Source of the DNA: Candidatus Poribacteria bacterium
GTDB taxonomy: Bacteria; Poribacteria; WGA-4E; WGA-3G
Reading direction: 5' to 3'
DNA: 64,000 nucleotides
Assembly: GCA_965205015.1 (NCBI GenBank)
Contig: OZ242029.1
Coordinates: 4,192,001-4,256,000 of the forward strand
This document shows, one piece after another, positions 2,048-63,233 of this stretch (positions within the stretch are counted from its first letter, which is position 1; each line of letters opens with the position of its first letter). The notes below the pieces were generated by a model. The model saw nothing but the letters and a program-made list of their open reading frames with translations, had not been told where the DNA came from and ran no database searches. Both the position numbers and the translations under genes were made by a program.

Positions 2048-2148
2048 TCTGAACTGTGATTTAAATGATTGAAGGATTACCTTGATTGTCGGAGTTTTCA
2101 TTCTTCCATCATGGTGAATCACATAAATCACATAAATCTTGGTCAAAA
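2048..2148. repeat. Intergenic imperfect palindrome built of TGTGATT/AATCACA units
   Basis: tgtgatttaaatgatt ... aatcacataaatcacataaatc; arms are reverse complements. Confidence 0.55.
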
Positions 2149-3009
2149 ATGCGGATAGACACCTTTCTGGTAGCGCGCGGCTTGGCAGAGAGTCGGGAAC
2201 AGGCGAAACGGCTCATTCTTGCGGGTGCAGTGACCGTCAACGGAAACGCCAGAATAAAGCCAGGACAACGGATTCCCGCTGATGCCAAAGTGGTCGTCCA
2301 GCAGCAACAAAAATATGTGAGCCGAGGCGGGTTCAAGTTAGAAAAGGCGTTACACACCTTTGACATAAACGTTCAAAATCGGGTTGCGCTTGATGTCGGT
2401 GCGTCAACAGGTGGGTTCACAGATTGTCTCCTCCAGCACGGTGCGAAATTCGTCTACGCCATCGATGTCGGTTACGGACAACTGGCGTGGAAACTTCGCA
2501 CGCATCCGCAGGTGCAACCGATTGAGAAAACGAACATCCGACACCTAACGCCAGCACACCTAAAAGCATCAGCGTTGAATGACCGGCAAGATTGTGCCTC
2601 CATTGCCGTGATTGATGTCTCCTTTATCTCTTTGAGAACGGTGCTGCCGAGTGTCATCAAGCTTATCACGCAGCAAGATAACAGTCAATTATCGATTGAC
2701 ATCATCGCACTGCTGAAACCGCAATTTGAAGCTGGCAAGGCATACGTAAAAAAAGGTGGGATCGTGTCTGATAAACAGGTCCATATCCAGACGATAGATA
2801 CCCTCAGTGCTTTCGTCACGGAGAAACTCGGAGCCACAATGAGAGGATTGACCTATTCACCGATCCACAAGGACATCGGAAATATTGAGTACTTGCTTTG
2901 GCTTACGGTCGATGGTAAGCGTCGGGATTTTCGTCAACATCAACAGACAGCTGCTGAGGTTGTAGAAGCGGCTCACGAATTTTTTAATTGTTCGCAAGGT
3001 GTTAATTGA
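2149..3009 (+). CDS. tlyA: TlyA family rRNA methyltransferase (S4 + FtsJ domains)
   Basis: MRIDTFLV S4 start, YVSRGGFKL, DVGASTGGFTDCLLQ, DVSFISL, KPQFEAG; start moved to ATG 2149 because the track's extension lies in a repeat. Confidence 0.93.
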   Translation: MRIDTFLVARGLAESREQAKRLILAGAVTVNGNARIKPGQRIPADAKVVVQQQQKYVSRGGFKLEKALHTFDINVQNRVALDVGASTGGFTDCLLQHGAKFVYAIDVGYGQLAWKLRTHPQVQPIEKTNIRHLTPAHLKASALNDRQDCASIAVIDVSFISLRTVLPSVIKLITQQDNSQLSIDIIALLKPQFEAGKAYVKKGGIVSDKQVHIQTIDTLSAFVTEKLGATMRGLTYSPIHKDIGNIEYLLWLTVDGKRRDFRQHQQTAAEVVEAAHEFFNCSQGVN

Positions 3010-3042: not shown

Positions 3043-3113
3043 CCGCCTGCGTGTTTTTGCAAACGCTAAAATCCAATGCGAAGAAAGTATTTCTGCGTAT
3101 TGTTGCAGGCTAC
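3043..3113 (+). repeat. 71-bp dispersed repeat, copy 1 (inverted copy at 50799-50869)
   Basis: ccgcctgcgtgtttttgcaaacgc...tgttgcaggctac is the reverse complement of 50799-50869; terminal gcctgc/gcaggc arms. Confidence 0.9.
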
Positions 3114-3138
3114 TGTCTTAAGTTAATTTTCGTAACCG

Positions 3139-3246
3139 TAGCCCGTAATGTAATGGAGGGGTTTTTGCTTGGGTGTTTCTTCAGATTTAAGAAAGGAACT
3201 TTAAAGATGAAATCTGCGTTATTCCTCCGCAAGGTAAAATTAAAAA
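3139..3246 (+). repeat. Dispersed element copy 1 (copy 2 at 63147-63233)
   Basis: Shared ends tagcccgtaatgtaatggaggg and gcaaggtaaaattaaaaa with divergent middles. Confidence 0.8.
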
Positions 3247-6200
3247 TTTTCGTCGGGATATTCCTCATTGTCGGGCTATGTGGAACGCTTTTCTTTATCC
3301 GTTCGAGGACCTTTCTGGATTGGATAGAGGGACGGCTTGAGACTGAACTCAAAAATAGGATAGACAGTAGCTACACCGCAACCGTCGGCAACATAGAGGG
3401 AAATATCTTAGGGAGCGTCAGCGTTAGAAGCGTTGAGATTTCCAAGGAAAACAGACCGGTAATCTCCACTGGAAAAGTCTTACTCAAATACAATCTGTTA
3501 GGGCTGCTCACTCGGAGATTTGAGGTGAAGGCGCTACAGGTAGATAAAGCGGAGATTCACGCCCGTAGGAACGCCGATGGTGACCTTAATCTGACACATA
3601 TCTTTACGAAACAGGACGGACAAGACGCCGCACAGTTCGATTTTGCCATTGAATTGCTCCAGTTGACTGACGGAACCCTCGGTTACACCGACACGCAACG
3701 CAATCTTGATCTCCGGATTGATGGAATTACCATTGCGGTGAAAGGACCTCTCAACACATGGAAGCATAACGGAAGGTTTGAAATTGAAAGTGGCAGTTTC
3801 AGGTTCAACGGTGCTGAAACGGCAATTGACACGTTTGATGCCGATTTTCAGATCTCCGTCAGCGGCAGTACATTGGATAAACTTCGATTGGAATTTGGCA
3901 ACTCCAATTTGGAGGTTACTGGCGAATTGATCCACAAAGAAACCGCGCCTGCTTGGAACAGCAAAGTCGAATTAAACCTGAACTTTGCAGATATAGCGTC
4001 GTTTTTGGGCGAAAATATTGAACTTAAAGGGAATGTTGGCGCGACGCTGGTCGTGAATGGTACAGATTCCGCCTTAGCAGGAACGCTCTCTGTGGAAATA
4101 CCAACGTTCTCCGCTGTCCCTGCCCCGTCAGGTCTTGTGCCTGCCCACAGTCGCAACATAGCGTTGACAGCAGGACATGTTGACGCGGATTTCAACTCCG
4201 AACCCACCCCAATATTCACAGTAAAAAAACTCAGTTTCCAAGTCGCCGATGGTACCGTGGTCGGCGATGGGAGCGTCACGTCACAGAATGCGTTGGAAGG
4301 TCCTCTGCTAAAGAGCCTTCAACAATTGTCAACCCATCCGATGACTTACCGCGGAAAATGGGACGCGACAAACGTACAACTGGTCTCCCTGCTGTCAATG
4401 TTCACGCACCCCCCAGAAAACCTTACTGGCAGCACGGGACTTCTCTCAAGTCGTGGAGAACTCAGTGGCAATAGCACGAACATTTCAAGTCTCGAACTTG
4501 ACAGCAAAATAGTGCTGACAGGGACAACACTCGACGAAGTTAAACTTGACGATTCGACGCTCAATTGCACAATAGCATCGGGTGAATTGAAAATCGACGG
4601 GAACTTAGATGAAACTGAGATTAATATCACAGGTCCCTTTCCCGTTGAACGCCAAGACGTTTTGGATATCCACGCAACAGACCTCAATTTCGATGATTTG
4701 ATGAAAATTGTCGACAGTGCGGATATCGGCGGGACAGCAGAGGTGTCCGCGCAGTTGTCGGACGGCACACTGACCGGGTTTATGAAAATTCCGAATGCGA
4801 CTTTCAACGACATCCCGATCGGTGCTTTGTCGGGTGATTTCCGCTACCAAGACGGACGGGTATTCATCGAAAACGGATTGATGACGAAAAATACAATAGA
4901 ACAGCTGATAACTACTAAAACTCAATATGAGAGTCGCACCAAAATAACCGGTATTGTAGAGGTTAAAGGCGAATTCCCCGCAGATTTCCGCGTCATCGCC
5001 GACCCGGTTTACGTCCAACATTACCCGAAACTCTTGTTAGGTGCTGAATATCCTGTAGAGGGTGAGATCAGAGGCGAACTCACATTGAGTGGAACGCTCA
5101 TCCATCTGGATGGCAGTGCCGACTTCAGTGTTACCGAAAGCGTGGCATGGGGTATCCATTTGGATCCGCTGACGCTCCCTTTGGAGATTGAGGATTACAC
5201 CTTCAGACTGCCAGATTTCAAGATAACCACGCGCGGTCAGCAGATTACCTTTAATGTTACAGCCGCCCCTAACGGGGACTATGACCTTCTCCTTGAAAGT
5301 GATGCCCCTGTCCGTTTAGAAGAAATTGCGAAGGCGGCAAATCTCCCCGATTTCCCCTTTGAAGGACAATTCGACGTTCGGGTTGTTGGAACGCTCAAAA
5401 AACCGGCGCGTCCTGATATTCAGGTTAAACTCGATTTTTCAGACTTCACCTTCTTGCACAATGAACGCGGCACAAAATATCCGCTCGGCGATGTCTATCT
5501 GCTCGGAAAACTCGTAGAACGGGAAGAGACTACCGGTGAACCCGATATCTACGACTTCCAGGGACACGGTTTTGAGGGGACGAGTCAGATTCAGGGGTAC
5601 ATCAGCATGGCTGCAGGGAACCCTTACCAGTTCACGGCGGAGGGTGAGACTTTTGACATGACACGGATCCTACCCATATTACACCCAATGCTTGAGGCGG
5701 TTACGGGGACCGCTGATGGGACCGCATCAATAAGGGGGACATTGGCAGACCTCGCACCATCGACTGAGGACGAAGTTACTGAATCCCAGAAACAACAGGT
5801 CTATCCCTATGATGTTGATATTCTTGTGAGTCGTTGTCAGTTGTCGGTTAACAGTCGTCAGTTAAGAGGTGGGTCTGTTGAACCAGAGTCTTCTTTAACT
5901 AACCATCAACAACTGATAACTGAAAACTATTCTTTCACAAATACTGAACCGATTCGCCTGCATCTCAAAGACGACACATGGACAATCGATACCCTTTCCC
6001 TAAGGACATCCGAAGATAAAGTCCCGTTTCTTGAATTGACAGGGACCTTGGATGCTAAAACTGAGATGATGAATCTGCACGCTGCATCTGACGGGTTCGC
6101 GCTGCTACCTTTTGAAGAGACATTCGGACTTCCACCTGGCATGCTGCAAGCCGGTGCTGTTCGTTATGATTTGAAAGTGACGGGGACATCCCTCGAACCC

Positions 6201-9200
6201 ACTGTTCAGTTAGAATGGGAAATCCCGACGCTCATATTAGAAACAGATGCGGGTGATATTGACATTGCCGATGCGGGTGGGGTCATAACATATCAAAGGG
6301 AGACGCTGCGTTTTGAGAGCTGCGCTTTCAAACTCTTCGGGAACGATGTGAACTTGGAAGGGTATATTGATGTTCATCCCGAAACGGTTAACACCTCGGA
6401 GTTACACCTCCGCGTCGATACGATTACCTTAGATCTTGCCACTCTGCCGATGGTGGCTCTCGATACTCTTGGATCCGGTAACGGAGTAACCGGGATTTTA
6501 GAGGCATCAATAGAGATCGGCGGCACGCTCGCTGAGCCGCTTGCGCTCCTATACGCCGAAACAGTCGGACAGCGGCCGATTCGTGTTGTCTCTTATATTC
6601 CGTCTATCACGCTGGAGCGCCTTCGTGTAGATGTTCATTTCGATTCAGACTTCGTGCGTGTTCAAAGGGTGGAAGCGAACGGGCAGGTGGGAGAGGGTCC
6701 CTACCGTGTCCAAGGAAAAGCCGTGTTCTCACGCGGGAATAGCCGTCAGCCATCAGCCGTCAACCATCAGCAGTCAGCCGATAGCTATTTCGAGGTTGAT
6801 GTGTCAGCGTCACAAATAGGGATTGGGGACTATGGTTTCGCTTCAGGACGTGTTAAGCTCAGCGGGACGGGCTTAGACCCACAGCAGCTTACGGTAATTG
6901 GTGAAATAAAGGAACTGGAACTTGACGGCTACAATTTCCGTCTGACGAACAGCGCGCCGCTCCAATTCATATCGGATCCAGCAGGAACGACTGAGGAAGC
7001 GGAGCCGCTTGCTGTGCACATTCCGCTACAACTCGAATCACCGGCTATGACAGCGGCGATGGAGGTCAACATTGCAGGCACCATTACCTCCCCTGAAATC
7101 ACAGCAGACTGGCACGGCATACTCAATGACAAGGCGTGGACAGGCAAAATCCAGTATCGAGATGAACGGATAAACGTCACCGGAATAGAACTCAAAAACT
7201 CTGAAGGGACGTTAACTTTCGTAGGTGTTATTCCGTTTAATCTGACGTTTGAAGCGATGGATATATCTGAACGGTTTATGGCGCTACCTATTGATGTACG
7301 TCTTCGAGGTAGCGAACTGCCTCTCAATTTTTTTCCAAGGATTGAGGGGATGCCCTTTTCAGAGGCGGATGGCACCGTTGACATAGATTTGGGACTGCAA
7401 GGCACAAGTCGATCGCCGGAACTCGTGGGCACCGTGTTTCTTGAAGCACCGCAACTACATCTCAAGGACTTTCACGGAGAAGGAGAAGAAAATGGAAAAC
7501 GAAGTTTTCCATCCCTTCTTCCGCCGCTTCAGAATATGCAGCTGCACCTCAGTGCGCGGGAAGACTTGATTGATTTCACAGCATTTCGATTCGACATAGC
7601 GGACGGTACCTGTAGACTTGAACAAGGGCAGGTCGTATTAGACGGCTTAATGCCAAAATACTTGATATTACGAGGGTTGAGATTAGAACGATTTCCACTC
7701 GGTTCGACTCTCCGTCAGGTCTTGCCGCCAGACCTGTCAAAAGAGGTAGAGGGACATATAACAACGACCTTACGTTCATTAACAGTGCCATTCGATAATT
7801 TCTTAGGGCTTGGAGAAAGTACGCCATTTCCACAAGTCCGAGAGATCCCTTCACTCACGGACCTTGTGACTGTTTCAAATGCGGATTTATCAATTGATAG
7901 TGTCCGCTTCGCTTTCAAGGCAGTGGATCGGACTTATGACTTCCGAAACCCGCGAAAGACCCCGATCGTTCTGAGTGGTGGAACTTTGGCTTTAACGGAG
8001 ATTTTCACGCTTGAAAACCGAGACGAATTCTCAGTCAAGCAGACCTTTACCGACGAGGATACAAAACCTGATGGTTTACTTGGGAACGAACAAACACTGT
8101 CAGCCAAGACGACGCTCAGTATAGATGCTGAAAGTAAATGGTCAGTGGACGGGGTTTTTGATGGCGCACTTCGGATCAAGAATTTTGATGTCTCCGTGAT
8201 AACCGACAGGTGGCCTGCGCCGTATCGGGTTACCGGTGCCCTGTCTGGAAGTCTACAGATGAGCGGGACCAGCGAGAATCCGAAGATAACCGTGCGGCGG
8301 CACGAGCGCGAACCTGCCGAACTCTACCTACACGATATCCCGATTGACCTGCGCTGGAGGATCCGCTATCAGAACGGGAAGTGGGAAATAACAGAGAAAC
8401 GATACGTGGAAGTTACATTCGGTGAAAACCAGTTGACTTTCTCATGGACAATGCCTTACAAATTTGAGGTAATTCCGTTCCTGACGGCACTGCAACAGAC
8501 ACCAGAAAAGGTCTGGACGGAACTCCAAGAGACTGAGATGCATGGAACTTTGGATATAAAAATAAACGACCTGACCATGCTACCGTCTGTGGTCCCAGGG
8601 CTTAGCACTGCAACGGGGACGAGTGAAATCCATACCAAATTGACAGGGACGATTGAAACCCCGCAAGTCGATGGGAGTGTCCGTTTCGAGAATATAGGAC
8701 TTACGTTTTCTGAAGCGAATATTCGGGTTAAAGAGGTTGAAGGCGACATTCGGTTATCAGAAACAGAGGCAACTATTAGGCAATTTGAAGGCATCTTGAA
8801 CAACGGGAGATTTGTTACTACGGGCAACATTATCGCGCCGCCAGATAGACCCATCTGGGAGAAACCTCCGACGTTGAATGTGTCCACGGGTCTCACATCA
8901 ACGGTTTTTGAACAGATGGGACAGTATCGAGTGGACCTCGCTTCCATGTCAGTTGGTCTGCACGGTGAACTGCTACGCCCGCGTCTCACGGGGGAACTCG
9001 ATATCAACGGCGGCTACTACCAACAGAATTGGGAAAGCGTTCGGGATTGGCTTACAGGGGGTTCGGTCAAGGAGACAGAACTTGTATTGGATTCCCCGAT
9101 TCTACGCGATTTACATCTGGATGGGGTAGATATTAACATCTCTGATAATTTTCGTGTGCTTTCATCAATCACAGGACCTACAGATATTGAAATCGCCTGT

Positions 9201-9716
9201 TTAGGCAAACTCTTCGGGACAATCCGTCAGCCGGTATACAGTGGGAACGTATCGGTACTGAGCGGAAAAATTGGGTTCATTGCGCAGACTTTTGAATTCC
9301 TCGAAGGTTCTCGAATCAGCAATCAGAGCACTGTTGACTTCGATCCAGAACTCAATATCTTTCTCCGGACCCCGAACCGGATTCGCGGTGTGCTACCGAG
9401 AGATGGAAGCACAATAGATCTTCAAGTGTATGCCGCCTTTACTGGCACTCTCAGCAATCCGAATTTCGTCCTGAGCGCGCCCCCTGAAACGACAACGGAA
9501 GTCCTCTCACACGACGATATTATAGATTTCATCTTACAGAACGCTGCACTCTCAGGCGCGCTCGGTGCGTTTACGTTTAGTTTCCACCGTCCGCTTGATG
9601 AAGATGCACGGTATATCAGTGCAGAGTACCCACTTGGGAAAAATGTGTCCATTAAAATTGAAACCAACGAAAAAAGGGAACACGGGATTGACCTTGAATT
9701 CAAAGGGCGGTTCTAA
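3207..9716 (+). CDS. tamB: TamB/AsmA-like translocation and assembly module protein
   Basis: About 2170 aa, N-terminal membrane anchor, long beta-rich repetitive body, TamB-like C-terminus (DPELNI...TGTLSNP), directly upstream of an Omp85 gene; start at ATG 3207 inferred. Confidence 0.8.
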   Translation: MKSALFLRKVKLKIFVGIFLIVGLCGTLFFIRSRTFLDWIEGRLETELKNRIDSSYTATVGNIEGNILGSVSVRSVEISKENRPVISTGKVLLKYNLLGLLTRRFEVKALQVDKAEIHARRNADGDLNLTHIFTKQDGQDAAQFDFAIELLQLTDGTLGYTDTQRNLDLRIDGITIAVKGPLNTWKHNGRFEIESGSFRFNGAETAIDTFDADFQISVSGSTLDKLRLEFGNSNLEVTGELIHKETAPAWNSKVELNLNFADIASFLGENIELKGNVGATLVVNGTDSALAGTLSVEIPTFSAVPAPSGLVPAHSRNIALTAGHVDADFNSEPTPIFTVKKLSFQVADGTVVGDGSVTSQNALEGPLLKSLQQLSTHPMTYRGKWDATNVQLVSLLSMFTHPPENLTGSTGLLSSRGELSGNSTNISSLELDSKIVLTGTTLDEVKLDDSTLNCTIASGELKIDGNLDETEINITGPFPVERQDVLDIHATDLNFDDLMKIVDSADIGGTAEVSAQLSDGTLTGFMKIPNATFNDIPIGALSGDFRYQDGRVFIENGLMTKNTIEQLITTKTQYESRTKITGIVEVKGEFPADFRVIADPVYVQHYPKLLLGAEYPVEGEIRGELTLSGTLIHLDGSADFSVTESVAWGIHLDPLTLPLEIEDYTFRLPDFKITTRGQQITFNVTAAPNGDYDLLLESDAPVRLEEIAKAANLPDFPFEGQFDVRVVGTLKKPARPDIQVKLDFSDFTFLHNERGTKYPLGDVYLLGKLVEREETTGEPDIYDFQGHGFEGTSQIQGYISMAAGNPYQFTAEGETFDMTRILPILHPMLEAVTGTADGTASIRGTLADLAPSTEDEVTESQKQQVYPYDVDILVSRCQLSVNSRQLRGGSVEPESSLTNHQQLITENYSFTNTEPIRLHLKDDTWTIDTLSLRTSEDKVPFLELTGTLDAKTEMMNLHAASDGFALLPFEETFGLPPGMLQAGAVRYDLKVTGTSLEPTVQLEWEIPTLILETDAGDIDIADAGGVITYQRETLRFESCAFKLFGNDVNLEGYIDVHPETVNTSELHLRVDTITLDLATLPMVALDTLGSGNGVTGILEASIEIGGTLAEPLALLYAETVGQRPIRVVSYIPSITLERLRVDVHFDSDFVRVQRVEANGQVGEGPYRVQGKAVFSRGNSRQPSAVNHQQSADSYFEVDVSASQIGIGDYGFASGRVKLSGTGLDPQQLTVIGEIKELELDGYNFRLTNSAPLQFISDPAGTTEEAEPLAVHIPLQLESPAMTAAMEVNIAGTITSPEITADWHGILNDKAWTGKIQYRDERINVTGIELKNSEGTLTFVGVIPFNLTFEAMDISERFMALPIDVRLRGSELPLNFFPRIEGMPFSEADGTVDIDLGLQGTSRSPELVGTVFLEAPQLHLKDFHGEGEENGKRSFPSLLPPLQNMQLHLSAREDLIDFTAFRFDIADGTCRLEQGQVVLDGLMPKYLILRGLRLERFPLGSTLRQVLPPDLSKEVEGHITTTLRSLTVPFDNFLGLGESTPFPQVREIPSLTDLVTVSNADLSIDSVRFAFKAVDRTYDFRNPRKTPIVLSGGTLALTEIFTLENRDEFSVKQTFTDEDTKPDGLLGNEQTLSAKTTLSIDAESKWSVDGVFDGALRIKNFDVSVITDRWPAPYRVTGALSGSLQMSGTSENPKITVRRHEREPAELYLHDIPIDLRWRIRYQNGKWEITEKRYVEVTFGENQLTFSWTMPYKFEVIPFLTALQQTPEKVWTELQETEMHGTLDIKINDLTMLPSVVPGLSTATGTSEIHTKLTGTIETPQVDGSVRFENIGLTFSEANIRVKEVEGDIRLSETEATIRQFEGILNNGRFVTTGNIIAPPDRPIWEKPPTLNVSTGLTSTVFEQMGQYRVDLASMSVGLHGELLRPRLTGELDINGGYYQQNWESVRDWLTGGSVKETELVLDSPILRDLHLDGVDINISDNFRVLSSITGPTDIEIACLGKLFGTIRQPVYSGNVSVLSGKIGFIAQTFEFLEGSRISNQSTVDFDPELNIFLRTPNRIRGVLPRDGSTIDLQVYAAFTGTLSNPNFVLSAPPETTTEVLSHDDIIDFILQNAALSGALGAFTFSFHRPLDEDARYISAEYPLGKNVSIKIETNEKREHGIDLEFKGRF

Positions 9717-9732
9717 GGGAAAAAAGTTTGCG

Positions 9733-9811
9733 AGTGTATCTAAAGTTGTGAAGTGCCTAAGGTTGTTGACAACTTTACCGACCTTAGCACACTTTATGAA
9801 CTTTAGCACAC
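9733..9811. repeat. Palindromic repeat (AGTGT..CTAAAGT family), copy 1
   Basis: agtgtatctaaagt (9733-9746) and aactttagcacac (9799-9811) match 13010-13023 and 12947-12959 in reverse complement. Confidence 0.75.
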
Positions 9812-12800
9812 GCTATGCAGTTTGTCTTATTCTGTGGCTTCCTTTCTGCTTTTTCCTGCAATCTATAGAAGCGCAGGAAAAAACGACGGAATCTTCCAGA
9901 CTTCCAATCTTCCAACCCAACGATTCCTCTCAGAAACGGATTGCGAAGATAGAGTACTACATTGGCACAACCCCTGCAGAAGAAACCCCAGAATACCCGA
10001 GTATACTTAGAAACCAGACAGTCGTATCAGTTGACAACACACTGTCTCGTCATACGATTCAACAGAGTATAAAAGCACTCTATGCGACACAGCAGTATTC
10101 CCAAATTCAGGTATACTTGCAGGACACTTCCGATGGTATTGTTTTAACCTACCAGTTAACTCCTTTCGCGCGTATCGAACAAATTGTGCTCGCCGGCATC
10201 CCTGAAAACGAGGTCAAGGATGCCATTGAGAATGCGATGCGCTCAAAACCGGGAGGAAGGTATGTCCCTACGATCGTCAAAACCGATGTGCAGCGCATTA
10301 AAGACGTCTGTCAAGCGTATGGATATTTTGACGCTAAAGTCACAGTCTCCGATACGCTCACCGAAGCGGGGACGTTAACCTACCAGATAGCCGTGGGTGA
10401 TGCCTCACGTATCAAAATATTGCAAATTCAGGATAATGTTGCCCTCTCAATCAACAGCCTTAAAGCCGTGTGTAACTTTAGCCGGCTCTTTCCGATTTAC
10501 AACGAATCCGGTGTAGAGACCGATGTGGCATCCATGGTGGCACTTTACCGTAAAAACAATTATCCCACTGCGACGATCGTCCCAAACTTTAATCATGAAA
10601 CGGGGGTGCTGCAATTTAAGGTCACTGAAGGGAGAGAGGTTCGGTTTAACTTTGTTATGGATGTCGGAGAGGTCCCGCTATCGCTCCAAGACGCATTCAG
10701 AGAAGACATAGTTTCGCTGATAAACACAGCGTCCTCGTCTGTATGGGAACGCCGGATAAGATCCTATTTCAAAGCCAAAGGTTACCACGATACCACCGTA
10801 GCGGTGGAGACACCGGACACCTCGACTGTGCGATTGACGATTAATCCGGGGATGCGTTATGTCGTTAAGGATGTCATTTTCTCTGGGAATAGGGCATTTT
10901 CGGATGCACAACTGAAGCGAGAGATGACGATGAAACCGATAGGCGGCTTTCTACGAAACTTACAAGCAGACATCGCAAGAGTGTTATTTCAGCACGAACA
11001 GAGACCCTTTTTTTATGAAGTAGAACTTGAAACCGATAGGCGTCGGCTCGACATTTTATATGGAAAGGTGGGGTATCCGAAGGCAACGATTACGACAACG
11101 CTTGATAAACAAAACTCAAACAACCGGCGTATTGGCGAAGTTGTGATACATGTCGCAATAATTGAAGAACACAAGGAGATGATTCACCGATGCGCCGTCA
11201 GCGGGAACAACGCGTTAGATACCGCGACGCTTCTGACACGTTTGGTGAGTGAACTCCCGCTTCCGCAGCCGAATGCCTCGCTTACGCGGAAAGCCTACAG
11301 CGACGCAATCTTAAAAGCCTATTACGAACTCGGATACATTGATGCAGCGATTAGTAACGCGTATGTATCAGAAACGGAGGATCCAGTTTTTCGGGTATCG
11401 GGTAATTTCTCTGAACCTCTTGCAGATCGTAAACTCCCGCCAGAAATCCGATCAGAATTCGACAGACATAACCTTACACTTACAGGGGCTGACATAACTA
11501 CCCAGATCGGCAATCGTTGGAGTCTCCAGGACATTGAAGGGAATCCACGGTATACACTTATACAGGAAGCGGCACATCTTGAGGTTTATGAACACGGCGT
11601 GCTACACCTCACTGTGGATCAGGAGGGTGAACAGGTCGTGTTCGGTAAATTCTATTTTGTAGGGGACACGGATGTTGTGAAACGGGACGTGTTTGAACGG
11701 GAAGTTACGCACCTTGAAGGAACACTGTGGACCTCGGAGAAGTTAAGCAGAGTCTTGCAAAACCTCTACAATTTGGGGCTTTTTCGCAGCGTCCAATATG
11801 AGCGTTTCTCACAACCGACCCGTAGCATAGGGACCCCGCAATCATCGAAGGTTACAGATTCCCCTCACCTCCGTCTCAGGAAAACCAACGATGTTTTAAT
11901 AACAGTCGAAAAACAGAAACCAAGAACCTACAGTGTGAGCAGCGGTTACAGCTTCGCAGAGGGGGTCCGCGGAACAGTGGTGTTGACGGACAGCAATTTC
12001 CTCTTTGATCGGAACATCCGAGGACGGGTGCGCAGCAGATTGGGATGGCGAGACGAATTAGGCTATCTTTTTGACGCAACACTCACCGAACCGTGGTTGA
12101 TTGGACGGACGCGGGGGAGTCTACAGGTATTAGCCAAGAAGTTAGAAGTAGACGATAACGTCCGCGCCCTTCAGGGGAGTTTTATCCTCAGCAGAGACTT
12201 GTCGGAATCGCACCATCTCGATCTAAGATATAGTTACCGGGACTTGAACCAACCCGTTCCACCGGTGCAGGATTCTCCCACAGGTATCGGCTCCCATATA
12301 GAGCAGAATCCTTTCAGCACAACCGTGAGCAGTGTTCGATTTTCTTGGACCTACGACAACCGCGAGCGTTATTTGAATCCTACCGGTGGTATGTTGAACG
12401 ATCTCACGCTTGAATACGCGGGCGGCAACCTCTTGCGGGGTGAAACCAGTTTTATTAAGACAACAACGGATACCCGGTATTACCAAAAACTTATCGGTGG
12501 GCTTGTAGTAGCGACCGCCGTCCGATTCGGAATCACGACAGGATTGCGCTCAAACCGGCGCGCGGAACTGATCTCTTTTGAGCGGTTTTGGGCAGGTGGC
12601 GGGACAACCGTTCGCGGTTATGCGGAACGCTCTCTCGGTCCCAAGGATAGCACGGGCATCCATCGCGGCGATGTGCAATTCATCTTTAACACGGAACTCC
12701 GCTTCCCAATCTATCGGATCGTTCGCGGTGCCCTCTTTTTTGATACCGGCAATGTTTGGGATGCCTTAGCGGATATCGAGACGACGCAACCGCTACCCTC

Positions 12801-12936
12801 CTCTGTTGGTGCCGGGCTTTACTTGGACCTGGGTGCCCTCACGGCTGGCATCGATTATGCGATCCCACTCGTGTCCGTGCCAGGTGCTTTAGATCCGAAC
12901 AGAGCCGTTCACGTTCGTGTGGGGAGTACATTTTAA
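9796..12936 (+). CDS. Omp85 family outer membrane protein (BamA/TamA-like, POTRA domains + beta-barrel)
   Basis: Signal peptide, POTRA-like repeats (Y...GY..A), GG.TVRGY, NTELRFP, FFDTGNVW, C-terminal Phe. Confidence 0.88.
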   Translation: MNFSTRYAVCLILWLPFCFFLQSIEAQEKTTESSRLPIFQPNDSSQKRIAKIEYYIGTTPAEETPEYPSILRNQTVVSVDNTLSRHTIQQSIKALYATQQYSQIQVYLQDTSDGIVLTYQLTPFARIEQIVLAGIPENEVKDAIENAMRSKPGGRYVPTIVKTDVQRIKDVCQAYGYFDAKVTVSDTLTEAGTLTYQIAVGDASRIKILQIQDNVALSINSLKAVCNFSRLFPIYNESGVETDVASMVALYRKNNYPTATIVPNFNHETGVLQFKVTEGREVRFNFVMDVGEVPLSLQDAFREDIVSLINTASSSVWERRIRSYFKAKGYHDTTVAVETPDTSTVRLTINPGMRYVVKDVIFSGNRAFSDAQLKREMTMKPIGGFLRNLQADIARVLFQHEQRPFFYEVELETDRRRLDILYGKVGYPKATITTTLDKQNSNNRRIGEVVIHVAIIEEHKEMIHRCAVSGNNALDTATLLTRLVSELPLPQPNASLTRKAYSDAILKAYYELGYIDAAISNAYVSETEDPVFRVSGNFSEPLADRKLPPEIRSEFDRHNLTLTGADITTQIGNRWSLQDIEGNPRYTLIQEAAHLEVYEHGVLHLTVDQEGEQVVFGKFYFVGDTDVVKRDVFEREVTHLEGTLWTSEKLSRVLQNLYNLGLFRSVQYERFSQPTRSIGTPQSSKVTDSPHLRLRKTNDVLITVEKQKPRTYSVSSGYSFAEGVRGTVVLTDSNFLFDRNIRGRVRSRLGWRDELGYLFDATLTEPWLIGRTRGSLQVLAKKLEVDDNVRALQGSFILSRDLSESHHLDLRYSYRDLNQPVPPVQDSPTGIGSHIEQNPFSTTVSSVRFSWTYDNRERYLNPTGGMLNDLTLEYAGGNLLRGETSFIKTTTDTRYYQKLIGGLVVATAVRFGITTGLRSNRRAELISFERFWAGGGTTVRGYAERSLGPKDSTGIHRGDVQFIFNTELRFPIYRIVRGALFFDTGNVWDALADIETTQPLPSSVGAGLYLDLGALTAGIDYAIPLVSVPGALDPNRAVHVRVGSTF

Positions 12937-12943
12937 GAGTCTT

Positions 12944-13033
12944 GAAGTGTGCTAAAGTTTTGAAGTGCTTAAAGTTGTGCAGTGCTCACTGCTCTTTTCA
13001 ACCTTACAGACTTTAGATACACTTTACAACTTT
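12944..13033. repeat. Palindromic repeat (AGTGT..CTAAAGT family), copy 2, between convergent genes
   Basis: aagtgtgctaaagtt...actttagatacacttta. Confidence 0.75.
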
Positions 13034-24527: not shown

Positions 24528-27179
24528 ATGAAACCGAAACATCTATGGGTTCTGACGGTTTTCTTTGTAACGCTTACATCGGTACTGACTACCTTTGCCC
24601 AAGATTCATCGCAGTGGCATCTCCCCGAAGGTGCCAAAGTGCGATTTGGTAAAGGTAATATCAGCCAAATCGTATATTCACCTGATGGAACGCTTTTGGC
24701 ATTGGGGAGTAGCCTCGGTATTTGGATTTACGATGCGGAGACGGGCGAAGCACTTGACCTGCTCACGGGGCAGACGGGTGTTGTCTATAGGGTCTCTTTT
24801 AGTCCGGATGGCACTACGCTCGCAAGTGGGAGTAGGGACAGCACCATCCGTTTGTGGGATGTCAACACGGGCAGACCCCTGCACACGCTCACGGGGCATA
24901 CGCGTGCTGTCTTTAGCGTCTCTTTTAGTCCTGATGGTCAGACGTTGGCAAGCGGGAGTGTGGACAGCACCATCCGTTTGTGGGATGTCAACACGGGCAG
25001 ACCCCTGCACACGCTCATAGGACATACGGGTGGGGCCCATAGCGTCTCTTTTAGTCCTGATGGTCAGACGCTGGCAGGTGGAAGTAGGGATGGCACTGTC
25101 CGTTTGTGGAATGCCAAAACGGGCAGACCCCTGCACACGCTCACGGGGCATACGCGTGCTGTCTTTAGCGTCTCTTTTAGTCCTGATGGTCAGACGCTGG
25201 CAAGTCAGTGTTGGGACCTCACTGTCCGTTTGTGGGATGTCAACACGGGCAGACTTCTTCGCACGCTCACAGGGCATACGGATGATGTCCGGAGCGTCCG
25301 GTTTAGTCCTGATGGTCAGACGCTGGCAAGTCTGACGCTGGACACCATCCGTTTGTCGGATGTCAGCACGGGCAGACATCTGAACACGCTCACAGGACAT
25401 ACTGGGCAGTTGGTCTTAAGTGCCTCTTTTAGTCCTGATGGCAGCATGCTGGCAACTGGAAGTATGGACCGCACTGTCCGTTTGTGGGATGTCAGGAGTG
25501 GGGCACACCTTCGCACGCTCACAGGGCATACGGCAGGTGTTGCAAGCCTCACTTTTAGTCCTGATGGCACTATGCTGGTAAGTCAGGGTTGGGATCATGA
25601 CGGCACCTTCCGTTTGTGGGATGTCAGCACAGGCAGACATCTGAGCACGCTCACAGGCCATGGTACGGGTTGGCTTGCGGGTTCGGTCAAAAACGTCTCT
25701 TTTAGTTCTGATGGCAGCACGCTGGTAAGTCGGACTTGGGACAACAACGTTTACTTGTGGGATGCCAACACGGGCAGACACCTTCGCAGGCTCACAGAGA
25801 ATGAGGGGAGATGTTTCCTTGGCGTCTCCGTGAGTCCAGATGGCACCACGCTGGCAAATAGAGGTCAGGATGGCAATATCAGAAACATCAGTTTGTCGGA
25901 TGTCAATACCGGCAGACACCTTCGCACGCTCACAGGGCATACGAATAGAGTTGTACGGGTTTCTTTTAGTCCTGATGGCAGCACGCTGATAAGTTGGAGT
26001 TGGGACGCGACTATCCGTTTGTGGGATGTCAGGAGTGGGGAACACCTTCGCACGTTCACAGAAAAGGATATGCCGGATGCCTATAACCTATCCTTTAGTC
26101 CAGATGGCACCACGCTGGCAGGTGGAAGTAGGGATGGCACTGTCCGTTTGTGGAATGCCAAAACGGGTAGACCCCTTCACACGCTCACAGGGCATACGAG
26201 TAATGTCGAAAACGTCTCTTTTAGTCCTGATGGCAGCACGCTGGTAAGTGGGAGTTGGGACGCGACTATCCGTTTGTGGGATGTCAGGAGTGGGGAACAC
26301 CTTCGCACGTTCATAGGGCATACGGGTAATGTCTGGAGCGTCTCTTTTAGTCCAGATGGCACCACGCTAGCAGGTGGAAGTACGGATGGCACCGTCCGTT
26401 TGTGGGATGTCAACACGGGTAGTGCCCTTCGCACGCTCACGGGACATACGGAGCCTGTCAAAAGCGTATCCTTCAGTCCAGATGGCACCACGCTGGCAAG
26501 TGGAAGTAGGGATGGCACCGTGCTTCTTTGGGAACTCGTGCCGACTTCACCGGAACCCGAAAGCATCGCCGAGGATGTCAACGGCGACGGTGTCGTCGAC
26601 ATTATCGACCTGACTTTGGTTGCATCAAACTTCGGGAAAATAGGACAAAACGCAGCGGATATCAACGGAGATGGCACCGTCGATATCGTTGATCTCACAC
26701 GGGTTGCTGGCGCATTTGGGAACGCAGCTGCCGCACCTGAAGTATGGAGTCGCCATCTGGAGATCACCCTCACAAGAGAGCAAGTTCAACAGTGGCTAAC
26801 TCAAGCCCAGCAGATGAACCTGACAGATTTGACATTTCAACGTGGGATTCTCATCTTAGAACAACTGCTTACGGTATTGACACCCAAGGAAACGGCACTT
26901 TTGCCGAATTACCCGAATCCGTTCAACCCTGAGACGTGGATGCCCTATCAGTTGGCAGTACCCGCAGACGTTAGCGTATCTATCTATTCAGCGAATGGAC
27001 GCTTGATTCGGACGCTTGATTTGGGACAGCAGCCTGTAGGGGTCTATAAATCCCGGAGTCGTGCAGCGTATTGGGATGGCAGAAATGCGTTGGGTGAACC
27101 CGTGGCAAGTGGAGTCTACTTTTATACGCTTACCGCAGGCGACTTTACCGCGACACGGCGGATGCTCATTCTGAAATAG
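24528..27179 (+). CDS. Secreted WD40 beta-propeller protein with dockerin-like and FlgD-Ig-like C-terminal domains
   Basis: AGGAG RBS, signal peptide, about 14 near-identical TGH...SFSPDG..LASGS.D.T.RLWD repeats, DVNGDG, NYPNPFNPETW. Confidence 0.9.
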   Translation: MKPKHLWVLTVFFVTLTSVLTTFAQDSSQWHLPEGAKVRFGKGNISQIVYSPDGTLLALGSSLGIWIYDAETGEALDLLTGQTGVVYRVSFSPDGTTLASGSRDSTIRLWDVNTGRPLHTLTGHTRAVFSVSFSPDGQTLASGSVDSTIRLWDVNTGRPLHTLIGHTGGAHSVSFSPDGQTLAGGSRDGTVRLWNAKTGRPLHTLTGHTRAVFSVSFSPDGQTLASQCWDLTVRLWDVNTGRLLRTLTGHTDDVRSVRFSPDGQTLASLTLDTIRLSDVSTGRHLNTLTGHTGQLVLSASFSPDGSMLATGSMDRTVRLWDVRSGAHLRTLTGHTAGVASLTFSPDGTMLVSQGWDHDGTFRLWDVSTGRHLSTLTGHGTGWLAGSVKNVSFSSDGSTLVSRTWDNNVYLWDANTGRHLRRLTENEGRCFLGVSVSPDGTTLANRGQDGNIRNISLSDVNTGRHLRTLTGHTNRVVRVSFSPDGSTLISWSWDATIRLWDVRSGEHLRTFTEKDMPDAYNLSFSPDGTTLAGGSRDGTVRLWNAKTGRPLHTLTGHTSNVENVSFSPDGSTLVSGSWDATIRLWDVRSGEHLRTFIGHTGNVWSVSFSPDGTTLAGGSTDGTVRLWDVNTGSALRTLTGHTEPVKSVSFSPDGTTLASGSRDGTVLLWELVPTSPEPESIAEDVNGDGVVDIIDLTLVASNFGKIGQNAADINGDGTVDIVDLTRVAGAFGNAAAAPEVWSRHLEITLTREQVQQWLTQAQQMNLTDLTFQRGILILEQLLTVLTPKETALLPNYPNPFNPETWMPYQLAVPADVSVSIYSANGRLIRTLDLGQQPVGVYKSRSRAAYWDGRNALGEPVASGVYFYTLTAGDFTATRRMLILK

Positions 27180-34065: not shown

Positions 34066-34220
34066 GGAACAGGGTAGGTACAAGCCTCGTATTCAAGGAA
34101 CAGGGTAGGTACAAGCCTCGTATTCAAGGAACAGGGTAGGTACAAGCCTCGTATTCAAGGAACAGGGTAGGTACAAGCCTCGTATTCAAGGAACAGGGTA
34201 GGTACAAGACCTACCCCTAC
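34066..34220. repeat. 31-bp tandem repeat (4 identical units plus a partial) ending in a GTAG-type REP
   Basis: ggaacagggtaggtacaagcctcgtattcaa x4, then ggaacagggtaggtacaagacctacccctac. Confidence 0.92.
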
Positions 34221-35774: not shown

Positions 35775-35778
35775 TTTA

Positions 35779-35892
35779 AGAGTCGTCAGTTATCGGTTAA
35801 AGAGGTTCTTGACTGAACTAAACTGCCTCTTTAACCGACGACCGAAAGGAAATCTGTATGGCAGATTTTCGTCCTGACAACTGATAACTGTT
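35779..35892. repeat. Palindromic repeat, GTCAGTT/AACTGA family
   Basis: gtcgtcagttatcggttaaagagg ... cctctttaaccgacga ... acaactgataactg. Confidence 0.85.
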
Positions 35893-35894
35893 AA

Positions 35895-37448
35895 TTATCC
35901 TTCCGAACGGATTTGGATTAACTTATTTACGGCGTGGATGTAAGCCCGTGCGCTCGCTTCGATGATGTCGGTGCTCGCACCGTGTCCGGTGATGATGTGT
36001 CCGTTGTCTTGGACCTTCAATGAGACCTCACCGATAGCGTCTTCCCCTTCGGTTACGGAACGAATCTGATAGTCGATGAGGTTTAGTTGAATGTCGACAA
36101 TTTGACTGATCGCTTTAAACGCCGCATCTACAGGTCCGTCGCCGGTTGAGGCTCTCTCAACGACACCCTCTTCCGTCCGAACACCAACGGTCGTTGTCGG
36201 TGAGATTCTCGTTCCACTGACAATTTGGATATAATCCAACTCAAAAACAGCAGGAATGGCGCGAATCTCATCGCTCATGATCGCCTCAAGATCGGCATCC
36301 TGCACGGCTTTCTTCTTATCAGCAACCCGCAAAAACCTTTCATAGACTTTTTCCAGCTGATCCGCGTCCACTTCATAGCCGAGTTCGCTGAGTCGGTGTC
36401 TGAGAGCATTACGTCCGGAACGTGGGCTGAGAATCAGTTGACTCTCTTTCCATCCGATCTCTTTCGGATCAATGATTTCAAAAGTCACACGCGATTTGAT
36501 GATACCGTCTTGATGGATGCCCGAACTGTGTGCGAATGCGTTCGCACCGACAATCGCTTTGTTCGGTTGAACGGCAATACCCATCGTCCGACTCACACGC
36601 CTGCTGATCGGAACGATTTCTTTGGCGTTAATATCGGTATAATATGCTTTAAAGTAATCTCGGCGGGTTCGGATCGCCATAACGACCTCTTCCAACGAAG
36701 TATTACCAGCCCGTTCTCCGAGTCCATTGATTGTGCACTCGACCTGCCGTGCGCCCTGCTCAACTGCTATAAGACTGTTCGCTACTGCTAAACCGAGGTC
36801 GTTATGGCAGTGTACACTAATAATGGCATCGTTAACATTTGGGACATTCTCCATGATGCCCTTAATTAAATCGCCAAACTCCGTTGGCACTGTCCATCCG
36901 ACGGTTTCCGGGATATTGATGACGGTCGCCCCCGCAGCGATCGTCGCTTCGACGACTTCATAAAGGAAGGCTAATTCCGTCCGTCCCGCGTCCATTGGTG
37001 AAAATTCGACATTCGCATCCGGGTGTCCTTCGCACAAACGTTTGGCATAGGCGACCGCGTCGGTTGCCATTTGCAATGTATCTTCAGGGGTTGTCCGTGT
37101 AATGCGTCCCATGTGAATTGGTGAAGTTCCGACAAAAGTGTGGATACGGGCGCGTGGTGCATCCTTAATAGCTGCCCATGCGGCAGTAATATCTTTCTCC
37201 ACAACGCGAGAGAGGGCACAGATTTCCGGTCCTTCAACTTCGTTGGCTATCCGTTTGACCGCATCGAAATCCCCCGGCGACGAAATTGGGAATCCGGCTT
37301 CAATGATATCAACATTTAATTTCGCGAGGTGCTTGGCAATCTCCAGTTTTTCCTCAATACCGAGTGCAGCACCGGGGGTCTGTTCAGCATCGCGAAGCGT
37401 TGTATCGAAAATATAGACTTTCTGCGGGTTGTTTTGAAAATCGTCCAA
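35895..37448 (-). CDS. leuA: 2-isopropylmalate synthase
   Basis: [25 protein letters not shown], regulatory domain GDGPVDA. Confidence 0.95.
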
Positions 37449-37467: not shown

Positions 37468-37601
37468 AGAGTCGTCAGTTATCAGTTGCCAGTCGTCGGT
37501 TAAGAGTACCCGTGTAACAAGCGGTTCCTTAGGATTGGAAGCACGCCAAGAAGGGGGAATGTGTTGCAAAAACCTCTTAACTGAAAACCGAAAACTATTC
37601 C
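37468..37601. repeat. Palindromic repeat, GTCAGTT/AACTGA family
   Basis: gtcgtcagttatcagttg..cggttaagag ... ctcttaactgaaaaccgaaaactattc. Confidence 0.85.
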
Positions 37602-38627
37602 CTACATTTCACGACCAACGGCAATCGCTATTGATTTCAGTTCCTGCATGAGGGTCTCGAATTGATCAGGGAACAGCGACTGTGCACCATCTCCTGTCAT
37701 TGAATGATCTGGATCGTGATGGACTTCAAGTAACAGTCCATCTGCGCCTGCCGCCACAGATGCCTTTGTCATATCACAGACGAGACTCCGGATACCCGTG
37801 CCGTGGCTCGGATCCACAATAATAGGCAGATGGCTCAATTCGTGAATAACAGGTACTGCGTTCAAATCAAGGGTATTACGGGTATGCGTTTCAAAAGTCC
37901 GAATGCCCCGCTCGCAGAGAATGACATCGGGGTTTCCTTCTGCGAGAATATATTCAGCGGCGAGGAGCCATTCTTCAATTGTTGCCGACATTCCGCGTTT
38001 GAGGATGACAGGCTTATTTGCTCGTCCCACTTCGCGCAACAGATAGAAATTCGTCATGTTCCGCGTGCCGAGTTGAAACATATCTGTATATTCACCAACG
38101 AGTTCAACTTCGTGTGGTGTCATGACCTCAGTGACGATGCCGAGTCCTGTTTCGGCTTTCGCTGCTTCCAGCATCTTAAGAGCCTCTTTACCGTAGCCTT
38201 GGAAACTATAAGGTCCGGTTCTCGGTTTAAAAGCGCCGCCTCTGATGAAACTCGCACCGGCTTTTCGGACCTGTTGCGCAATGGTTACGATCTGTTCCGT
38301 GCTTTCTACTGCGCACGGACCGGCAATGACGGGTACCTGCCGTCCACCAATTTTCGTGTCGTTGACTGCAATAACCGTCGGTTCATCCCGAAACTCACGG
38401 CTTGCCAATTTGAACGGTGCCGTAATTGGCATCGTCCGATCGACCCCCGACATTGACTCTATCGGAATATCACCAAGCAATGTTTTATCTCCTATGACAC
38501 CGATGACAGTGTGTCTCTCACCGACTGAGACTTGTGCTTTCAAGCCTGCATCTTCGATCCGTTTTACAACAGCGTTGACATCTGCTTGTGTCGCATCGGT
38601 CTTGGTAACAATTACCATCCTTTTCAA
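37602..38627 (-). CDS. aroF: DAHP synthase type I-beta with N-terminal regulatory domain
   Basis: [36 protein letters not shown]; GGAGG RBS before TTG. Confidence 0.95.
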
Positions 38628-38644
38628 CTACCTCCGCCTTTTTA

Positions 38645-38730
38645 ATAGTTTTCAGTCTTCAGTCTTCAGTTTTCAGTTAAGAGGTTTTCGTTTAAAAGTT
38701 CCCTCTTTAACTGATAACTGACAACCGATG
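38645..38730. repeat. Palindromic repeat, GTCAGTT/AACTGA family
   Basis: ttttcagttaagagg ... cctctttaactgataactgacaaccg. Confidence 0.85.
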
Positions 38731-38807
38731 AGCGATAACCACTCTTCCGATGAATGACAACCAATACACCGAAAGATAATTCTGTCTGTCGCAAATGAAA
38801 CTCGGTT

Positions 38808-40228: not shown

Positions 40229-40295
40229 TAGGGTAGGCACAAAACCTATCCCTATAGCCTCCATATCTACATATGCACAAGACCTATCCCTACAG
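40229..40295 (-). repeat. Two degenerate copies of the GGGTAGGCACAAGACCTACCCCTAC REP
   Basis: gggtaggcacaaaacctatccctat and gcacaagacctatccctac. Confidence 0.75.
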
Positions 40296-50798: not shown

Positions 50799-50869
50799 GT
50801 AGCCTGCAACAATACGCAGAAATACTTTCTTCGCATTGGATTTTAGCGTTTGCAAAAACACGCAGGCGG
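50799..50869 (-). repeat. 71-bp dispersed repeat, copy 2
   Basis: Reverse complement of 3043-3113. Confidence 0.9.
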
Positions 50870-50933
50870 GTCCTGAGGAAGGCACATTGAAATCTAAACT
50901 CGCGTCGTTCTCCCGCAAGGTATAATTAAAAAT

Positions 50934-62342: not shown

Positions 62343-62374
62343 ATGAAGATTAAGAATGTAATTCGGTAATGTGT

Positions 62375-62458
62375 GGGTAGGCACAAGACTTACCCGAATG
62401 TATGGATAGGCACAAGACTTACCCGAATGTATGGGTAGGCACAAGACCTACCCCTACA
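62375..62458. repeat. 29-bp tandem repeat x3 ending in a GTAG-type REP
   Basis: gggtaggcacaagacttacccgaatgtat units; last unit ends acctacccctac. Confidence 0.88.
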
Positions 62459-63146: not shown

Positions 63147-63233
63147 TAGCCCGTAATGTAATGGAGGGTGGACTTAAGGAACGCACTTAATGGACTAAAC
63201 GAATATTGTTTCTCGGCAAGGTAAAATTAAAAA
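63147..63233 (+). repeat. Dispersed element copy 2, preceded by an inverted arm at about 63091-63105
   Basis: Ends shared with 3139-3246; upstream ctccattacattacg is the reverse complement of cgtaatgtaatggag. Confidence 0.8.

Follow-up and report, generated by a model that had tools for sequence, protein, structure and literature searches.

An in-frame copy of a heptamer-armed palindromic repeat in tamB of Candidatus Poribacteria, probably derived from a mainly intergenic family

How does a hairpin-forming repeat that lies mainly between genes come to be read in frame within an envelope protein? The question is raised by a stretch of 64,000 nucleotides from a Candidatus Poribacteria bacterium, one of a group of sponge symbionts (contig OZ242029.1, positions 4,192,001 to 4,256,000), which we analysed as a whole and will call the window. 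In the window, the tamB gene contains a palindromic segment. An earlier sequence-only reading had described it as a repeat inserted in frame and had likened it to the Rickettsia palindromic elements (RPEs). We think it likely that the segment is a copy of a non-coding hairpin repeat family that entered tamB secondarily and is tolerated there, at the tip of a beta-hairpin. The gene and the parts of the element, which we will call site 1, are as follows.

3207..9716, + strand: tamB, encoding a TamB/AsmA-like envelope protein; the open reading frame (ORF) is open from GTG 3051, and the orthologue consensus start is ATG 3207.
5832..5933, + strand: site 1, the heptamer-armed palindromic repeat, in frame; 34 codons without a stop, with bounds taken from empty orthologous sites.
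5830..5864, + strand: left arm of site 1; five 7-nt units of the TCAGTTA type.
5862..5899, + strand: core of site 1; TTAAGAGG, a loop with GTTGAACC, then CTTCTTTAAC, with two TTAA 33 nt apart.
5897..5931, + strand: right arm of site 1; five 7-nt units of the AACTGAT type, with CTGA kept in two only.

Does the segment belong to the intergenic family? We built a profile from 8 intergenic copies from other Poribacteria genomes, leaving out the tamB copy, and searched the window with nhmmer. The best match was the tamB segment (5833-5928, E = 1.2e-23, 78.7 bits, profile positions 3-98 of 99), followed by 38648-38740 (1.3e-16), 35777-35848 (1.2e-10), and 37471-37507 (2.1e-05). All matches in the window up to E = 10 are confined to these four places, with several overlapping matches and on both strands. 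These are the same four loci that had been grouped from the sequence alone, when the segment was said to be kin to intergenic copies at 35779, 37468 and 38645; the kinship holds up, and the similarity, which might have turned out not to be significant, is highly so. Furthermore, the pattern CAGTN3CAGTN3CAGT (with at most 1 mismatch) has 11 matches in the window versus 0.20 expected from 100 shuffles, and all 11 lie inside four loci (5838-5929, 35873-35890, 37469-37500, and 38646-38727). All four copies in the window consist of inverted arms and a core; in the tamB copy, inverted arms of 7-nt units surround a TTAAGAGG...CCTCTTTAA core. The three intergenic copies are listed here.

35777..35905, no strand assigned: intergenic copy 1, a compound of the element and another small hairpin; the M17 aminopeptidase and LeuA-like genes converge on the spacer that it fills.
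37469..37602, no strand assigned: intergenic copy 2, with a long loop; it lies between the start of the LeuA-like gene and the stop of the DAHP synthase gene.
38643..38745, no strand assigned: intergenic copy 3, immediately upstream of where the DAHP synthase gene (minus strand) has its ribosome-binding site and start.

Four other genomes (L020, L025, L027, and L032) have an orthologue of the copy at 35.8 kb, and the small second hairpin alongside it (35852-35875) is conserved there. The loop of the main element differs between genomes at this site, so cores are exchangeable at a fixed site.

The tamB segment is real DNA and not an artefact. Contigs from two studies cover 5400-6900 unbroken, with 0 and 12 differences and no indel. 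Many further contigs match 5833-5872 or 6737-6778 only and then diverge; these are other copies of the repeat from the same communities.

In the tamB frame, the segment gives 35 residues from Ser927 without a stop. It had been placed at 5828-5932 (about 105 bp); its in-frame reading stands, and its bounds shift slightly, as the element-derived stretch is 5832-5933. The core comprises TTAAGAGG at 5862-5869, a 20-nt loop with GTTGAACC, and CTTCTTTAAC at 5890-5899. In the right arm, the two units that retain CTGA are those in which TGA is out of frame, and the units that would have had TGA in frame are altered. (In the right arm of another filled locus, L005, CCGA replaces CTGA throughout.) Because the ORF is open, the right-arm units lack an in-frame TGA by necessity. 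The altered units reveal which changes, or what selection, a coding copy needed in order to survive. An orthologue with 90% identity, P0003, lacks exactly 7 residues, or three heptamer units. The frame is kept in P0003, which suggests that arm length changes by slippage after insertion.

Is the segment an old part of TamB or a later arrival? We aligned the window's TamB with its 120 best homologues (121 orthologues in all). As the sequence-only reading had anticipated, the segment is variable. Site 1 is short in 91 of the 121 orthologues (16 residues in 89 and 17 in 2), with a conserved TSQLRY-type start, and long (20-46 residues) in the other 30. Every early-branching orthologue is short, or empty, at this site. 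We also examined 20 distant homologues (18-46% identity). The turn is tighter still in 19 of them, and the remaining one has a longer loop that is unrelated; none carries the segment, so the concern that it might be conserved in distant TamB proteins can be set aside. The deep-branching orthologues and all but one of the 20 distant homologues have the short form, so it is the long one that is derived.

At the DNA level, we compared the window with eight related loci (L001-L008), all from metagenome-assembled genomes of Poribacteria. The empty site spans 93 nt between two conserved motifs (L002, L003, L006, L007, and L008), while the filled site spans 150-168 nt between the same motifs (the window, L001, L004, and L005). 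The element takes the place of the native 16-residue turn (15 codons after a retained Ser) and gives 35 residues instead, for a net gain of 19 amino acids or 57 nt. No target duplication is visible between the filled and empty sites of the window and the eight loci; 45-48 nt of the target were replaced. Thus the earlier description of an in-frame insertion was right about the frame, but this is a replacement of the native turn and not a plain insertion. The window and L005 retain the first native codon (Ser); L005 and L024 seemingly retain the last two native residues; and P0015 retains the first nine. Since the retained native residues differ, the junctions differ between lineages.

Where in the protein does the replacement fall? 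For residues 781-1300, an AlphaFold2 model from 61 sequences, including 20 distant homologues that we added, had a mean predicted local distance difference test score (pLDDT) of 84.6 and a predicted template modelling score (pTM) of 0.78. (An earlier model from 41 close sequences was poor, with a mean pLDDT of 56.7.) In the model, a strand runs through residue 934 and takes in the first arm-encoded residues (pLDDT blocks of 96 and 72), residues 940-956 have pLDDT below 50, and a strand resumes at 959 (block of 95). We infer that the arm-encoded residues extend both flanking strands and that the core-encoded residues form a flexible tip. Mapping the segment onto a predicted structure, as had been suggested, thus gives a strand-loop-strand turn with a low-confidence tip. 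The other two internal low-confidence stretches, apart from the tip at site 1 and a loop at the second site described below, (about 907-913 and about 1141-1143) adjoin positions of indels among the orthologues.

Might the hairpin itself be what is kept in tamB, with the peptide as a by-product? It could act as RNA or DNA, for instance in mRNA processing, in pausing, or in regulation of a tamB-tamA operon. Folded as RNA, the tamB copy has z = -3.38 and beats 199 of 200 shuffles (1 of 200 was as good). Also, intergenic copies of the family often abut ribosome-binding sites, and a role there has been proposed for TAACTGA repeats (parts of PMC4679880). But the element is absent from 91 of the 121 orthologues. 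Its right arm has decayed, and folded as DNA the tamB copy has z = -1.45, with 23 of 200 shuffles as good. Folded as DNA, the intergenic copies have z = -5.11 (35777..35905), -4.48 (38643..38745), and 0.03 (37469..37602, which has the long loop). Searching the window against Rfam gave no match at gathering scores anywhere. We consider a retained RNA or DNA function to be very improbable.

How often was the turn filled? We inferred a gene tree for tamB with FastTree, using 732 well-filled columns and masking both variable sites (site 1 and a second site that is described below). The filled or empty state of site 1 changes 23 times on this tree, or 27 times if allele types are considered. After collapsing branches with support below 95 and resolving them toward few changes, at least 16 changes remain. 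Some strongly supported sister pairs differ in state (among them P0030/P0085, P0047/P0089, and P0008/P0012) and some in allele type (such as P0007/P0067). The same turn holds different allele types and has, in one case, a different left boundary. The turn at site 1 is a hot spot that has taken up one version of the element or another on many occasions, in different lineages of Poribacteria.

We also considered that one or a few old insertions occurred and that the filled and empty alleles, with their types, then spread by short-patch homologous recombination. This would account for the near-identical allele types that are scattered over the tamB tree, and for the same unusual left junction in the window and L005, despite their different clades. 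The opportunity exists, as many strains share one sponge sample, and contigs from relatives are present in the same sequencing runs, including one that is 57 nt shorter across the site. However, 150-nt flanks on each side of the site follow the gene tree. For the filled L005, the similarity of these flanks is 0.877 to the empty L008, 0.850 to the empty L007, and only 0.767 to the filled window copy; its far flanks give the same order (0.865, 0.838, and 0.758, respectively). Filled-filled pairs are no closer near the site than far from it: the mean of near-minus-far similarity is -0.070 for these, versus -0.060 for 24 EF (empty-first) pairs and -0.088 for 11 FE (filled-first) pairs. The closeness of L005's flanks to empty alleles and the lack of a filled-filled excess favour repeated acquisition over transfer of a larger tract. 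Furthermore, the lineages differ by 20-30% in DNA, which is much for homologous exchange, and the same core is found at two other sites in tamB and in other genes, so new insertions do happen. Old insertion followed by recombination therefore seems unlikely to us, although it deserves more weight than the other alternatives.

A second site in the window's tamB is also variable:

6738..6788, + strand: site 2, a reduced in-frame heptamer tract of CAGCCNT units, with AATAGC...GCTATT ends and no hairpin (z = 0.20).

The CAGCCNT tract of site 2 gives 5 pattern matches versus 0.13 expected, and in the model this site is a low-confidence loop between two strands. Among the 121 orthologues, 54 have a native turn of 7-9 residues at this position and 67 have longer segments, many of which share a core peptide with site 1. 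The state of site 2 changes 15 times on the tamB tree, or at least 10 times with branches collapsed. In a strict scan, each tamB orthologue had 0-3 heptamer clusters, and several sites besides these two were involved.

Is tamB the only gene that has been entered? To count copies we used other Poribacteria genomes than the window's own. The core pattern of the tamB copy (one mismatch allowed) has 31 matches in 22 of 120 genomes sampled from the phylum, versus 1 match for the control pattern. Among 31 distinct copies of the core that we looked at, 16 are in long open frames, at 10 gene sites: 5 are at tamB site 1, 2 at site 2, 1 at a third site in tamB, 1 in a tlyA-like gene, and 7 in six other genes. 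The remaining 15 are intergenic or at the ends of genes. So there is an RPE-like situation in this lineage, as had been supposed, with the core in frame in several unrelated genes.

The 16 coding copies share a single orientation. Their peptides start with QL(R/K/T), encoded at the left TTAA, and lead to SLTDN-like residues where the right TTAA lies. In a second scan, the two TTAA were 33 nt apart in 13 of 13 coding copies, and the 9 copies that were scored for frame (those on the + strand) were all in frame 0. As read from the sequence, the core would also have one open frame in the reverse orientation, so finding one orientation at 10 of 10 gene sites is unlikely to be due to chance, though several of these sites are orthologous to each other, which weakens the orientation counts.

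A bolder reading is that the palindrome is a mobile beta-hairpin cassette, and that a process directed at turns repeatedly swaps the native tips of envelope and housekeeping proteins for its strand-loop-strand units, always in one orientation and frame. Such a process would differ from classical transposition, given that native codons are replaced and none are duplicated. If so, proteins such as TamB could vary rapidly from strain to strain throughout the phylum, and this variation might itself be selected. We think that this is quite unlikely.

Overall, the heptamer-armed family is mainly intergenic. Taking the sites in one chromosome (G003) in order of position, 19 of 20 matches to the strict arm pattern are outside of long ORFs and 1 is inside a 991-residue ORF; intergenic copies in this genome are often right before a ribosome-binding site. 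Because decayed copies tend to escape the strict arm pattern, the true coding share is at least as high as this count. The family's ends, AATAGT...ACTATT, recur among the copies from these scans. The abundance of the family varies by genome: matches to the strict heptamer pattern versus the control pattern numbered 99 vs 22 in G003 and 57 vs 11 in G004, which are enriched, and 17 vs 36 in G001 and 46 vs 40 in G002, which are not. We rejected the strict pattern as a census, given that it is unenriched in G001 and G002 and undercounts degenerate coding copies.

In three of the 15 copies that are intergenic or at gene ends, the longest open frame across the element stops at a TAA within the core (CAGTTAAG). 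These frames have 501 amino acids in L035, which is long, 119 in L026, and 83 in L037. In L035, a gene may take its stop codon and its final residues from the repeat.

Another potential explanation is growth in place: a 7-nt microsatellite within tamB would have expanded by slippage, and the segment would resemble the intergenic repeats only because they share the unit. The arms are tandem heptamers, P0003 is three units (7 residues) shorter, and the window's site 2 consists of direct heptamers and lacks a hairpin, all of which would fit. But slippage does not account for the non-repetitive 33-nt core, which together with both arms matches the intergenic profile over its full length, or for the presence of the core in unrelated contexts across 22 of the 120 genomes. 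Growth in place is hard to credit.

Instead, we propose that an intergenic-type repeat arrived in tamB as a secondary event and, at a beta-hairpin tip, swapped the 16-residue turn for 35 residues. The family is built from arms of tandem 7-nt units (TCAGTTA / TAACTGA type), the AATAGT...ACTATT ends, and a core of TTAAGAGG-loop-CCTCTTTAA. The tamB copy is compatible with translation in that its length is a multiple of three, it uses the only stop-free frame of the core (CAG-TTA-AGA-GG), and its in-frame TGA units have been changed. The element would persist in tamB because it is harmless there and so is tolerated by selection.

How might the element have moved? Native codons were replaced and no duplicated target is seen, which is at odds with cut-and-paste transposition. 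A better fit would be copying from another copy of the repeat, by template switching or repair, with just a few matching bases at the junctions. We looked for a link to RAYT (Y1) transposases and rejected it: the four chromosomes G001-G004 have 2, 4, 2, and 6 Y1 transposase genes, which does not track the abundance of the repeat, and heptamer arrays are found within 1 kb of 0 of these 14 Y1_Tnp loci. Another idea was that the 29-nt core is itself an independent, very small element, nested at a TTAA between two abutting arms. The two TTAA would then be expected to lie 33 nt apart in every copy, as they do, but arms that are joined by a single TTAA turned up in just one case in the four chromosomes.

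Several observations weigh against our proposal that an intergenic-type repeat entered tamB repeatedly and is tolerated at a hairpin tip. First, the hairpin of the coding copy is only moderate (DNA z = -1.45), and comparing the model of the middle fragment (residues 781-1300) to the PDB with Foldseek gave no match at E <= 0.001, so that the beta-groove fold of TamB is unconfirmed for this fragment. That the segment is translated is itself deduced from the reading frame. Second, the tamB element is unlike a simple transposon (45-48 nt replaced and no duplication), and no known insertion mechanism fits. Third, the tree was built from tamB itself, so intragenic recombination could inflate the count of changes; the shared boundaries and near-identical peptides of distant filled alleles could reflect exchange of alleles, and exchange of very short patches is compatible with the flank data. 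Finally, both the 120-genome sample and the loci with coding copies were chosen with the pattern from this tamB copy.

How does this family compare to other repeats? We know of essentially one textbook case of palindromic repeats colonising genes in frame, that of Rickettsia, for which the original papers are reportedly those of Ogata et al. (2000 and 2002). RPEs are described in parts of PMC10969869 as dispersed palindromes of about 100-150 bp, many of them in frame in unrelated housekeeping genes, to which they add a conserved peptide; the insertions appear to be compatible with the fold of the protein, and according to the same parts, no transposase is known. Like the RPEs as so described, the element in Poribacteria is a dispersed palindrome that is found in frame in unrelated protein genes (16 of 31 copies, 10 gene sites). 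Unlike them, it is from another phylum, it is shorter, and its arms contain a variable number of tandem 7-nt units. Moreover, its copies are mostly intergenic, and in tamB it takes the place of a native turn, one that has been filled repeatedly. Given its Poribacteria host, it is an analogue of the RPEs and not a member, and the likeness is one of description.

The 7-nt unit itself recalls the TAACTGA repeats of marine Beggiatoaceae, Cyanobacteria, and some Bacteroidetes (MacGregor 2015; PMC4679880, in part). There, the repeats are described as mostly intergenic, often just upstream of start codons, and as forming 169 direct sets and one indirect repeat, with no core; the few copies in ORFs are mostly at the ends of proteins. 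Tandem TAACTGA has a stop in every third unit when read forward, and its reverse can be translated as an LSVISYQ-like peptide (also from parts of PMC4679880). The arms of the Poribacteria element share the tandem TAACTGA/TCAGTTA unit. In contrast to the direct repeats in that account, it has inverted arms, a conserved core, a hairpin, and copies inside conserved proteins.

Repetitive extragenic palindromic (REP) sequences and REPINs are described, in portions of PMC3116915 and PMC3733652, as short, hairpin-forming, mainly extragenic repeats with two inverted arms, which are mobilised by RAYT transposases. The Poribacteria element resembles that description in being a short hairpin with two inverted arms and in being mainly extragenic, but as mentioned above, its heptamer arrays are not within 1 kb of the 14 Y1 transposase genes in four chromosomes. 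As for miniature inverted-repeat transposable elements (MITEs), the terminal inverted repeats are present (AATAGT...ACTATT) and the target-site duplication is absent. The short tandemly repeated repetitive (STRR) sequences and small dispersed repeats of cyanobacteria (Elhai et al. 2008) are said to include tandem CAGT-containing heptamers and very small elements that are nested within heptamer tracts. The Poribacteria element resembles these as so described. In our literature search, which had bioRxiv supplements and subscription journals outside its reach, we found no description of a heptamer-armed family in Poribacteria.

If our proposal is correct, then Poribacteria offer a second, independent, and richer case, with hundreds of genomes and with clean filled and empty alleles at the same codon. 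There are at least 16 changes of state at one turn of one protein, and a DNA hairpin maps onto what is predicted to be a strand-loop-strand unit. This makes it possible to test which positions in proteins tolerate new sequence, how selfish repeats create coding sequence, and how an element moves without a transposase. Poribacteria proteins also owe much of their length variation and of their low-confidence loops to element tracts, which can lead gene calling and alignment astray. The contribution of the window is a very clear example of a hot-spot turn, in a large envelope protein, that was filled repeatedly and by replacement and is always read alike.

The host gene has the features of a TamB/AsmA-like protein. 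The ORF at 3051-9716 (+) matches the Pfam families TamB (E = 2.2e-17), DUF748, and AsmA; the TamB (DUF490) domain is C-terminal, the AsmA/DUF748 region is N-terminal, and an Omp85 partner gene adjoins. The closest matches are named Candidatus Poribacteria TamB domain protein. The consensus of the orthologues suggests that the gene starts at ATG 3207, which is 52 codons inside the long ORF call, and the first 156 nt of the long ORF (3051-3206) are probably non-coding. The gene order is dxs, tlyA-like, tamB, and Omp85/POTRA. The neighbours of tamB are as follows.

188-2041: dxs, the first gene in this order.
2086..3009, + strand: tlyA-like methyltransferase gene (S4 + FtsJ), upstream of tamB; there is no element in the window's copy.
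9565..12936, + strand: Omp85/POTRA (TamA-like) gene, downstream of tamB.

In other genomes, the strict scan also found in-frame heptamer copies in both of the genes that adjoin tamB. The tlyA-like orthologues of L002 and L031 carry an in-frame copy of the element, and the L005 orthologue of the Omp85/POTRA gene has an in-frame heptamer arm.

Several other repeats lie in the window. Just upstream of the likely start of tamB, a 71-nt stretch (3043-3113) has a perfect inverted copy at 50799-50869, 47.7 kb away. A weaker repeat adjoins each copy (3184-3246 and 50870-50932), with a further copy at 63171-63233. The 71-nt inverted repeat may be another mobile or promoter-carrying element. The Omp85/TamA-like gene is flanked on both sides (9723-9811 and 12933-13033) by short tandem repeats of 17-19 nt and a 24-nt inverted pair. 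About 14 tandem units of 126 nt lie at 24656-26629; this spacing is typical of a gene for a WD40-repeat protein, which this could be. There is a perfect tandem array at 34066-34208 (31 nt x 4.6) and another array at 62368-62453 (29 nt x 3). These 31-nt and 29-nt arrays have in common a GGGTAGG...CCTACCC hairpin motif, which appears twice more near 40.2 kb (40231-40295), and they are a second repeat family, unrelated to the heptamer-armed palindrome.

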